From Ostreococcus lucimarinus (taxonomy: Eukaryota): 64,000 bases of DNA. Below the pieces are notes generated by a model, which saw only the letters and a list, made by a program, of their open reading frames with translations, did no database searches and had not been told where the DNA came from. Made by a program: the position numbers and the translations under genes. Location of the stretch: assembly GCA_000092065.1 (NCBI GenBank), contig CP000581.1; one strand, given 5' to 3'. Of this stretch, positions 38,283 to 41,810 are shown in pieces (positions within the stretch are counted from its first letter, which is position 1; each line of letters begins with the position of its first letter).

Positions 38283-41200
38283 ATGTCGGCGGCCAAGGCG
38301 GCGGCCAAAGCGGAACGCGCCGCGGCGCTCCGTAAGGATGTCGACTTCGTCGAACACACGTGGGCGGCGGAAAAGCTCTATGCGCACTTTGGATGCACGC
38401 TCGAAGATGGTTTGTCCAACGAGCGCGTGCTCGAGAACCGCGCCAAGTACGGCGAAAACCGGCTGACGCCTCCCGAGGTGACGCCGTGGTACATCAAGTT
38501 TTTGATGCAGTTTGCGAACTTTTTCGCGCTCTTGCTTCTCGGGGGTGGGGTGCTTTGCTTCGTTGGTTACGCCATCGATAGTGAAAAGGATCAAACGAAC
38601 TTGTATCTCGGCGTGGTGCTCTTCACCGTCGTCATGATTACGGCGACGTTTTCCTTCTTGCAAGAAGCCAAGTCCGAAGCCATCATGGAGGGTTTCAAGA
38701 GCATGATCCCGAAGAAGTGTAAGGCGATCCGTGGCGGCAAGGCTGTCGTCATCGATGCCTGGGAGCTCGTTCCGGGTGATGTCGTCGATCTCAACGACGG
38801 CGACCAAGTCCCGGCGGATATTCGCGTCATGCGCTCCAACGAACTCAAGGTTGACAACTCTTCTTTGACCGGTGAGTCTGAGCCGCAAGATCGTACTCCG
38901 GAACTCGCGGTCGACTCCAATGGTAACATCGTCACGCAGCCGCTCGAATCTACGAACTTGTGCTTCTACACGACGATCATCAACTCTGGTTCCGGTCGCG
39001 GCGTCGTCATCGGCAGCGGCGATCGCACCGTCATGGGTCAAATCGCTGGTCTCGCCACGGAAACGAGCGGTGAAGACTCGCCGATTTCTAAGGAAATCAA
39101 GAAGTTCATCCAACTCATTTCTATCGTCGCCATCACGCTCGGTATCGTTTTCTTTGTCGTCGGTTTGACCAACGGGACGGCGATTATTCAAAACGTCGTC
39201 TTCATGATTGGTATCATCGTCGCCAACGTGCCGGAAGGTCTCCTCGCCACCGTGACTGTGTCTTTGGCTTTGACTGCCAAGCGCATGCACGCGAAGAACG
39301 TGCTCGTGAAGAACCTCGAAGCCGTCGAAACTCTCGGTTCGACGACTGTCATCGCCTCCGACAAGACGGGTACGCTCACGCAAAACCGCATGACGGTGCA
39401 ACACGCGTGGTACGACAACAAGGTTTACTTCTGCCCGGCGGGTAAAAATATCCCGGATCTCAAGGTTATCTCTGAACCCGGCCAAACGCCGGATGGTGAA
39501 CCGTTCTACGATCAGTCTTCGGAAGCGTTCCAACGCTTGCTCCAAGTCGCCACTTTGTGCAACAACGCCGAGTACTTGACGAAGAGCGAAGACGGCTCCT
39601 TCATCGACCTCAAGGCTGAAATGATGAACCCGAACTTCAATATTCTCAAGCAACCGGCCACCGGTGACGCTTCCGAACAAGGTTTGCTCAAGTTGGTTCA
39701 GCCGCTCAACGACGCTCTCGACACCCGCGCCAAGTACCCGAAGTTGTTCGAAATCAAGTTCAACTCGACGAACAAGTGGCAGCTGTCCATTCACGGGCAA
39801 CCGGGCGGCCGTCCGCCTCTGCTCGTGCTCAAGGGTGCGCCGGAGCGCGTGTTGGCCAAGTGCACGTCGTACTTTTCCAACGGTAAGACGTCGAGCAAGG
39901 ATGCCGAATTCGAGCGCACCTACACGCAGTCTTACGAAGATCTCGGCGGTCGCGGTGAGCGCGTCCTCGGTTTCGCGTTCAAGGAACTCTCTGGATTCAA
40001 GAATGACTTCAAGTTTTCCCAAAAGCCGAAGCCGAACTTCCCGATCGATGACCTCACCTTCGTCGGTCTCTTCTCTCTCATTGACCCGCCGCGCGAAGGC
40101 GTTCCGGAAGCCGTGACGAAGTGCAACCGCGCTCGCATCAAGGTTTACATGGTCACGGGTGATCACCCGATCACCGCAGCGGCCATCGCGAAGCAAGTGA
40201 ACATCGTCTCTCAAGAAAACCTCGACAACGGCACAGCCTGCGTCGTGAAGGGCGACGACATTCGCGCGTGGACTGAAATTGAAGACCCGGTCGCTCAACG
40301 CGCCAAGTGGGACGCGGCTCTCGATCACAAGCAAATCGTTTGGGCGCGCGTGTCTCCGGCACACAAGCTCTTGATCGTCGAAAACTGCCAACGACGCGGC
40401 GAAATCGTCGCCGTCACCGGTGATGGCGTCAACGACGCCCCGGCGCTCAAGAAGGGTGACATCGGTATCGCCATGGGTATCGCCGGTAAGGATGTTTCCA
40501 AGGAAGCGGCTGACATGATTCTCATGGATGACAACTTCGCCTCCATCGTGAATGGTGTCGAAGAAGGTCGTCTCATCTTTGACAACCTCAAGAAGTCCAT
40601 CGCGTACACGCTTTCTTCCAACATTCCGGAAATCGCGCCGTTCTTGTGCTACATCACCGCCAAGATTCCGTCTCCGTTGACCACCGTGCTTATTTTGTGC
40701 GTCGATCTCGGTACGGATATGGTTCCCGCTATTTCCATGGCGTACGAAGAAAAGGAAGCCGACATCATGGATCGTCCGCCGCGCAACGCGCAAACGGATC
40801 GCCTCGTCAACTTCCGATTGATTTCTTTCGCGTACCTTCAAATCGGTATCATCCAAGCCCTCGCTGGCTTCTTCACTTACATGCTCGTCCTTAACGACTA
40901 CGGCTACACGCCGAGCATCTTGATGGGCAACGGCTTGAAGTGGACCAAAAACTCCTTGCTCTGCACCCTCAACGGTGACAGCATCGTGGACACGAATCAA
41001 GGCCGCGCCATCTACCGACCGAAGGCGTGCGGTTTCGGCTGCGCTGACTCGACCGGTACCATGGCGAACATGTGCAAAGGTGGATGCGCCATTCCGGTCG
41101 ATTACGTTCCGAGCACCACAGCCAATCTCGCGTCCCCGTTCCTTGCTCGCTTGGTGTCGACGAATGGAGCGACTGGAGTCACCGTGGATCCGTTCCTCGA

Positions 41201-41810
41201 ATTCGACGAGAATGGATTCCGCGGTAAAGGTCTCACGTGCGGCCGATCTTGCGCGTCGTTGGCATCTGCAACGCTTTCTACTGCCGAGCAAACCGCGTAC
41301 ACGTATTTCTGCTCGGACACGGGTACCACTGGCACTGCTTCCAACCTGGGCGGTGACACGGCCGGCTGGGGATTCTCCAGAGGGTACGTCGACGATAAAG
41401 CCATCGCTCCGGCGGGCGCGTACTACTGGTGGAACGGCGCTCCGCAGACGCAACCGAACGTCGACTACCAAACCGCCGCTCTCGAGTACGCGCAAACCGC
41501 GTACTTCATCACGATTATCATCGTCCAATGGGCCGATTTGATGATCGCCAAGACTCGCAAGTTGTCCATCTTTGAACAAGGCATGGGTAACGACTTCATG
41601 AACTTTGGTTTGATCTTCGAAACCGTCCTCGGCGCCACGTTGTGCTACACGCCCATCTTCAACAAAGTGTTTGGTACGCGCCCGCTGCACGTCCTTCACT
41701 GGTTCTCTGGCGTGCCTTGGTCGATTTTGATCTTCACGTACGACGAGTTGCGCAAGTCTTTGATTCGCTCCAACCCGAAGGGCTGGCTCGATCGCTGGAC
41801 GTACTGGTAA
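38283..41810 (+). CDS. P-type ATPase, type IIC (Na+/K+- or H+/K+-ATPase alpha-subunit-like) with large Cys-rich insertion in the M7-M8 extracellular loop
   Basis: ATG at 38283. [13 protein letters not shown] (phosphorylation site), [45 protein letters not shown], C-terminal ...WLDRWTYW (cf. Na,K-ATPase ...WVEKETYY). Close full-length similarity to the Na,K-ATPase alpha subunit. The M7-M8 loop is about 190 aa instead of about 45 and carries about 10 Cys. Confidence 0.85.
   Translation: [1175 protein letters not shown]

Follow-up and report, generated by a model that had tools for sequence, protein, structure and literature searches.

An orphan eight-cysteine domain with hypervariable loops in the M7-M8 ectoloop of an Ostreococcus Na,K-ATPase-type pump: a possible built-in replacement for the beta subunit

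We have analyzed a 64,000-nucleotide stretch of Ostreococcus lucimarinus DNA (contig CP000581.1 of assembly GCA_000092065.1; hereafter, the window), which carries a gene for a P-type ATPase of the P2C (Na,K-ATPase alpha-type) subfamily. The complete coding sequence (CDS) lies at 38283..41810 on the plus strand, where all the features of the pump given below are also found. It is an intact open reading frame (ORF) with a product of 1175 amino acids (aa) plus stop, assigned by Pfam and by phmmer searches of the PDB. In the extracellular loop between the transmembrane (TM) helices M7 and M8, the pump harbors a conserved domain with eight invariant cysteines (residues 887-1060; 40941..41462), defined by family alignments and by a local profile match. 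This domain may act as a built-in replacement for the beta subunit of animal pumps, to which it is unrelated, and among near-identical haplotypes three of its surface loops are hypervariable.

To delimit the insertion, we aligned the pump to animal alpha subunits with HMMER. Residues 6-888 aligned to residues 22-889 of alpha1, and residues 1068-1175 to 913-1021. When the C-terminal third was used alone, residues 841-889 matched 805-853 of alpha4, while residues 1067-1175 matched 875-984. With the blocks stopping at 888/889 and resuming at 1067/1068, the insertion, measured against the animal alpha subunits, spans residues 890-1066 (40950..41480). It is bounded by M7 (about residues 845-870; 40815..40892) and by M8 and its exit (residues 1071-1093; 41493..41561), both placed by alignment to the animal helices. 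The alga has 177 residues in the M7-M8 gap and the animal subunits 21 to 24, giving a net excess of around 156 aa. An earlier note on this DNA, written from the letters alone, had estimated an insertion of about 150 aa in this ectoloop, a value with which both runs agree, and its statement that the protein is colinear with animal Na,K/H,K alpha subunits holds apart from this excess. Regarding the cysteines, the four strings that the note quoted are present, but its count of about ten is wrong: the insert has eight (C894, C916, C920, C931, C935, C986, C990 and C1010), six of them in three CxxxC motifs.

The insert belongs to a family. Searching proteins with the C-terminal third of the pump gave 684 homologs, and around 20 of the 120 listed have an insert that can be aligned to that of the window, with 34 to 70% identity. 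Further members came from an exhaustive profile search. We built insert alignments (A1, A2 and A3) with 17, 24 and 41 sequences. All eight cysteines are kept in the three of them, even though the 24 to 41 homologs are only 30-56% identical. Between 20 and 25 columns are invariant, including the eight cysteines and also G917, G934, P938, D969, G978, R980, G981, R1033, A1042, G1045, W1050 and N1059, and length variation is confined to the linkers between motifs. The cysteines of the window insert are spaced according to the family pattern C-x(n)-CxxxC-x(n)-CxxxC-x(n)-CxxxC-x(n)-C, and no invariant column of A1 or A2 is missing from it. The motifs shared by the family are CG[FY]GC, GC.IP, DPF.EF, GFRG, C.R.C and YWW.G..Q..PN.

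Going from the N-terminal side, the invariant Cys894 (40962..40964; column C8 in A1/A2) is followed by the first CxxxC, C916-GFG-C920 (41028..41042; motif CG[FY]GC, with C30, G31 and C34 invariant in A1/A2). The second CxxxC, C931-KGG-C935, runs into AIP (41073..41096; motif C..GC.IP, with invariant C45, G48, C49 and P52). The DPFLEF...GFRG segment at residues 969-981 (41187..41225) contributes the invariant columns D83, G92, R94 and G95 and the near-invariant P84, F85 and E87. It precedes the third CxxxC, C986-GRS-C990 (41238..41252; C100 and C104 invariant, R102 nearly so), and the invariant Cys1010 (41310..41312; column C124). A C-terminal motif at residues 1041-1060 (41403..41462) closes the domain, with A156, G159, W164 and N173 invariant and Y162, G166, Q169 and P172 near-invariant. 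In animal pumps, its place is occupied by the SYGQ beta-docking segment.

We then looked for the domain outside the pumps already aligned. Word-indexed protein searches with the insert returned only 4 and 10 proteins, so that an exhaustive search was needed, and the insert profile was run by HMMER over 1.84 billion representative proteins (E <= 1e-3). This gave 44 matches. Those inspected, with one exception, are either P2C fragments containing M7 or M8, or mis-called exon fragments bearing the same motifs; one family member is a Pyramimonas EukProt entry. The exception, P0156, is a secreted-looking protein of 917 aa with nine kringle repeats. We rejected this match as spurious: it extends over around 30 residues, amounts to a short YRG...C motif and scores only 1.5% in hhalign probability. 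Membership of the domain in the kringle family was likewise discarded, with no Pfam kringle match and no fold match. None of 17 family members matched a Pfam family over the insert at E <= 10, and the best hit of the insert in a profile search of PDB sequences had an E-value of 0.56. As far as these sequence searches reach, the eight-cysteine domain is an orphan that occurs only in the M7-M8 loops of P2C pumps.

Regarding its structure, the AlphaFold2 model of the window's own insert, made with 17 sequences, had a predicted local distance difference test (pLDDT) score of 43.5, too low for use. For this reason, we modelled the compact ectoloop of a homolog (P0022, 160 aa, 41 sequences), which lacks the long Ostreococcus linkers. 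This model reached a mean pLDDT of 81 and a predicted template modelling score (pTM) of 0.76; the structural statements made here come from this relative, which is 50% identical. Comparison of the P0022 model with PDB folds gave no match. The core of the domain is thus predicted to be a compact, folded, mixed alpha/beta unit without detectable relatives. The earlier note had asked whether the loop might be a disulfide-rich domain; folding is predicted by way of the homolog.

The next question was how common such loops are. Taking loop length as the spacing between the conserved M7 and M8 anchors, we surveyed 104 C-terminal homologs. The 44 loops of animal length (76-80 residues) include 34 with SYGQ, while none of the 60 expanded loops (81-437 residues) has this motif. 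Outside the eight-cysteine family, the expanded loops are non-homologous to it and form at least three other recognizable groups, many of them rich in cysteine (environmental pumps P0039-P0137). Since the expanded loops fall in unrelated groups, all of them without SYGQ, the M7-M8 loop has, judging by the sequences sampled, received insertions repeatedly in pumps without the beta-docking motif. The survey is consistent with an ectodomain in cis as an alternative to the beta subunit, although it does not prove it.

In animal pumps, SYGQ is the point at which the beta ectodomain contacts the M7-M8 loop; this binding stabilizes the insertion of M7-M10 in the membrane, allows exit from the endoplasmic reticulum (ER) and tunes K+ binding. 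In the algal pump, a lineage-specific domain is inserted in the extracellular M7-M8 loop, just upstream of the position that SYGQ has in the animal subunits. In the ER lumen, its eight cysteines would pair into four disulfides, and the domain, once folded, would lock the M7-M8 hairpin and cap the outer face of the pump. It could then take over in cis the task that the beta ectodomain performs in trans, or at least the structural and maturation side of it, making a separate beta subunit unnecessary. We consider it plausible, if somewhat short of probable, that this disulfide-locked domain is a built-in replacement for beta. Two published observations count in its favor: the conservation of the Na+-site residues in OtNAK1 (PMC3355532), and the NaCl sensitivity of a Chlamydomonas NAK1 mutant in a screen (PMC11252407). 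The absence of beta genes from the green lineage, which the earlier note had put forward, is also in line with our data, as tblastn detected no beta homolog within the 64-kb window (best E = 6.6) and no beta subunit has been reported in green algae (PMC7911474).

Several points weigh against this replacement. The algal and the animal pumps have in common the catalytic core, the motifs of the ion sites and a mass of protein outside the membrane at M7-M8. In animals, this mass is provided by a second chain, a type II glycoprotein that has a TM helix of its own and docks on SYGQ; in the alga, the eight-cysteine domain provides it in cis, and SYGQ is absent. The domain is unlike beta in sequence and in predicted fold, has no TM segment to mimic the packing of the beta helix against M7/M10 and, unlike the heavily glycosylated beta subunit, contains no N-glycosylation sequons. 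Other lineages have non-homologous inserts of 20 to 360 aa in the same loop, which may simply tolerate insertions in general. Besides, the hypothesis of a beta equivalent has no experimental support, as PMC7911474 states.

An unexpected observation came from variation between strains. The exact pump sequence falls in a cluster at >=90% identity with 258 members of 1170-1179 aa. Among 12 full-length members of this cluster, 44 of the 116 variable columns and all the internal indels are located in residues 951-1025. We then compared the DNA of the window with three conspecific haplotypes (L002, L003 and L004) from different metagenomes. Over the 320 nt at 41083-41402 (codons about 935-1040), identity to the window drops to 88.6-89.1%, against 99.75-100% in the remaining CDS and 97.9-99.7% in the 1-kb flanks. 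This clustering of differences is highly significant (Fisher p = 2e-21). The ratio of non-synonymous to synonymous polymorphism (pN/pS) in this region is 1.2-2.1, with in-frame indels in addition, although pN/pS > 1 is not significant by itself (binomial p = 0.08).

The haplotype comparison resolves three hypervariable (HV) patches: HV1 (residues 955-968; 41145..41186), HV2 (residues 991-1000; 41253..41282) and HV3 (residues 1011-1027; 41313..41363). Both HV1, for which alleles were tabulated, and HV3 are loop expansions, missing from the compact homologs, and in HV3, haplotypes that are identical elsewhere differ at 11 of 27 nt. Each main HV1 allele was found together with each main HV3 allele, four combinations in all, which points to recombination between them. 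Since the divergence is far above that of the non-coding flanks, relaxed constraint alone is insufficient to explain it; what is needed is a selection that maintains diversity or, in the low-complexity sequence, a mutation rate that is raised locally. We picture Ostreococcus as having added to the conserved core surface loops rich in Gly, Thr and Ser, which are either free to vary or driven to vary. We have found no earlier report of this hypervariability.

An ortholog on a fourth metagenome contig, L001, is diverged along the whole gene, with third-position identity of 0.5-0.8 and a synonymous divergence (dS) of around 0.55. Nevertheless, over a block of ~600 nt (L001:5233-5832) it matches the window at ~40500-41100 (codons ~745-944) with 100% identity. 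The block takes in M5-M7 and the first part of the insert, and L001 has the same HV1 allele as L002. Two origins of this mosaic come into question: an exchange between lineages, by recombination or introgression, or an assembly of the metagenome that is chimeric. As the identical block confounds the ratio of non-synonymous to synonymous divergence (dN/dS) between the window and L001, that estimate was replaced by the comparison of conspecific haplotypes.

One could argue that the chief role of the ectodomain lies not in beta-like maturation but in interactions at the cell surface, and that balancing or diversifying selection keeps up the diversity of its exposed loops, for instance through recognition by a virus, a grazer or another antagonist. 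The concentration of differences in the linkers, their pN/pS with in-frame indels and the shuffled HV1 and HV3 alleles all speak for it. So does a hypervariable region described in O. tauri viruses, in genes whose products are surface or receptor-binding proteins (PMC12906663). Yet pN/pS > 1 falls short of significance when taken alone, the patches are low-complexity stretches of Gly, Thr, Ser and Asn that are possibly prone to slippage, metagenome contigs may combine strains, and the papers that we read report no link between the pump and virus adsorption. In addition, the deeply conserved cysteine core implies a structural function that does not depend on the loops. On balance, we regard the interaction module as rather unlikely to be the chief role, while replacement of beta and surface interaction are not mutually exclusive and both can hold. 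Narrower, and more improbable still, is the idea that HV1-HV3 form a host-antagonist interface in which balancing or diversifying selection keeps old, shuffled alleles because a prasinovirus or another biotic agent exploits the pump, a surface protein both abundant and indispensable, for recognition or attachment. If true, an essential ion pump would be an arms-race locus in one of the most abundant picoeukaryotes of the ocean.

Another possibility is that a permissive loop has tolerated the insert, which would be essentially neutral and serve no specific function. The wide range of M7-M8 lengths among P2C pumps (76-437 residues, anchor to anchor), with several unrelated inserts, suits this explanation, and so do the linkers, whose rate of evolution is close to neutral or above it. 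However, a neutral insert would not keep eight invariant cysteines and about 20 further invariant positions among sequences that are only 30-56% identical, nor a core that is confidently predicted to fold, as seen in the homolog model. We therefore disfavor a neutral origin of the whole domain and hold it to be decidedly improbable.

Much weaker is the proposal that a beta subunit, homologous to PF00287, has become fused into the pump as the insert. PMC7911474 does call the algal insertions highly similar to animal beta subunits, but none of the 17 insert members matched PF00287 at E <= 10. A comparison by hhalign of human beta1 (a query identical to chain 7e1z_B) with the insert family profile gave a probability of 0.11%, and the PDB profile search contained nothing of the kind. 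The insert also lacks the two marks of a beta subunit, an N-terminal TM helix and an immunoglobulin-like ectodomain fold. By profile comparison and by the predicted model, then, the eight-cysteine domain is unrelated to the beta subunit, and a fused beta is ruled out with next to no residual likelihood. As neither sequence nor predicted fold is common to both, any equivalence between them would be purely functional.

It is just as hard to credit that the insert is an unspliced intron or an artefact of the gene model. Five in-frame GT...AG pairs can be drawn, for instance 40940-41380, whose removal would take out 147 aa, and the UniProt model of O. lucimarinus lacks the insertion according to PMC7911474. 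Against this, the decisive point is that the insert is conserved as protein across more than 40 homologs, with every indel in frame. The candidate donor sites are poor, and the frame is open, with a chance probability of ~0.005 for 156 open codons at this base composition (computed from the GC content). The codon bias is like that of the remaining CDS, the GC content at third codon positions being 0.65-0.77 in the insert and 0.69-0.79 elsewhere. Moreover, EukProt and 'merc' homologs contain the insert running directly into M7 or M8, and these entries are presumably derived from transcriptomes. The check for an intron that the earlier note had proposed therefore comes out on the side of coding sequence, and the insert is, on protein conservation, open frame and base composition, translated sequence under selection. 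Its absence from the UniProt model (A4RQL0) may come from a homology-guided gene call that took 40940-41380 as an intron.

Regarding the rest of the pump, Pfam recognizes in order Cation_ATPase_N, E1-E2_ATPase, Cation_ATPase, Hydrolase and Cation_ATPase_C, the last one broken into two stretches. The top PDB chains are Na,K-ATPase alpha1 (E = 6e-297), ahead of H,K-ATPase (~1e-250), SPCA (1e-114) and SERCA (1e-106). The phosphorylation motif DKTGTLT (residues 360-366; 39360..39380) is read in the translation and is the same in the alignment to animal alpha1. TGES is found at residues 196-199, a further hallmark motif at residues 712-732 and WTYW at the C-terminus, so that all the hallmark motifs listed in the earlier note were recovered. 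The alignment also displays the cation-site residues VPEGL in M4, YTL[TS]SNIPE in M5, DLGTD in M6 and QWAD in M8. Motifs, domain order and a closer match to Na,K/H,K alpha subunits than to other P2 pumps place the protein in P2C, although it lacks the SYGQ beta-docking motif of this subfamily. Some members of the >=90% cluster bear the Joint Genome Institute (JGI) label sodium/potassium-transporting ATPase subunit alpha. Given the colinearity, the motifs and the best matches, which support the alpha-type identity, we read the gene as coding for the catalytic chain of a P2C pump of predicted Na+(/K+) type in an Ostreococcus-like picoalga.

An antisense ORF of 1382 aa (37551-41699, minus strand) covers nearly all of the pump gene. 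Most likely it is no gene and merely follows from the GC richness and biased codon use of the sense strand. Neighboring genes are located at 36078-37331 (minus), 41978-42937 (minus) and 42507-44402 (plus). The order ankyrin-repeat protein, pump, EMG1 methyltransferase and acyltransferase-family protein is kept on the metagenome contigs L001-L004.

Among known systems, the closest are the OtNAK1 (1172 aa) and CrNAK1 pumps, catalogued with conserved Na+-site residues by Pedersen et al. 2012 (PMC3355532), whose main text does not discuss an M7-M8 insert. Subfamily and architecture are the same as in the window pump (1175 aa), which is most likely an ortholog or allele of OtNAK1. While the earlier note knew of no described model for such an arrangement, the conserved insert in the M7-M8 loop of algal Na/K pumps had been proposed as a beta equivalent by Pedersen & Palmgren 2017 (Funct Plant Biol 44:473), as cited in PMC7911474. 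In that account, the loop, the green algal hosts and the functional idea are the same as here. Dabravolski & Isayenkov 2021 (PMC7911474) added an analysis of their own of "beta-subunit-like insertions". The insert and the idea of a built-in beta are thus already published. Our results contradict the label "beta-like", given the lack of beta similarity in sequence or fold, and also the listing of O. lucimarinus as a species without the insertion (PMC7911474), since the insert is present in every full-length member of the Ostreococcus-like cluster that we examined.

Two further systems share traits with the domain. The small Tim family of twin-CX3C proteins has CxxxC repeats that could pair across antiparallel segments; the likeness is in spacing only, the compartment is different and there is no sequence or fold match. 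The P2C Na+-ATPase HANA of the stramenopile Heterosigma akashiwo (Shono et al. 2001, BBA 1511:193) reportedly has a large hydrophilic insert in its M7-M8 loop as well. The long loops of other environmental pumps are not homologous to the eight-cysteine family.

What this analysis adds is an exact definition of the domain, which has eight invariant cysteines, matches no known fold and is unrelated to beta. It also adds the absence of SYGQ from every expanded-loop pump sampled, together with unrelated inserts in the same loop elsewhere. The most interesting lead is the unexpected hypervariability of three surface loops among near-identical haplotypes. That the insert is a surrogate for beta is a reasonable hypothesis. 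If the fused domain does replace beta, the alpha-beta partnership of animals would be one of several solutions to the stability of the M7-M8 hairpin. The alga would then have a single-chain Na+ pump, attractive for structural work and for engineering sodium extrusion in plants, the latter reportedly being the motivation of the 2017 paper.

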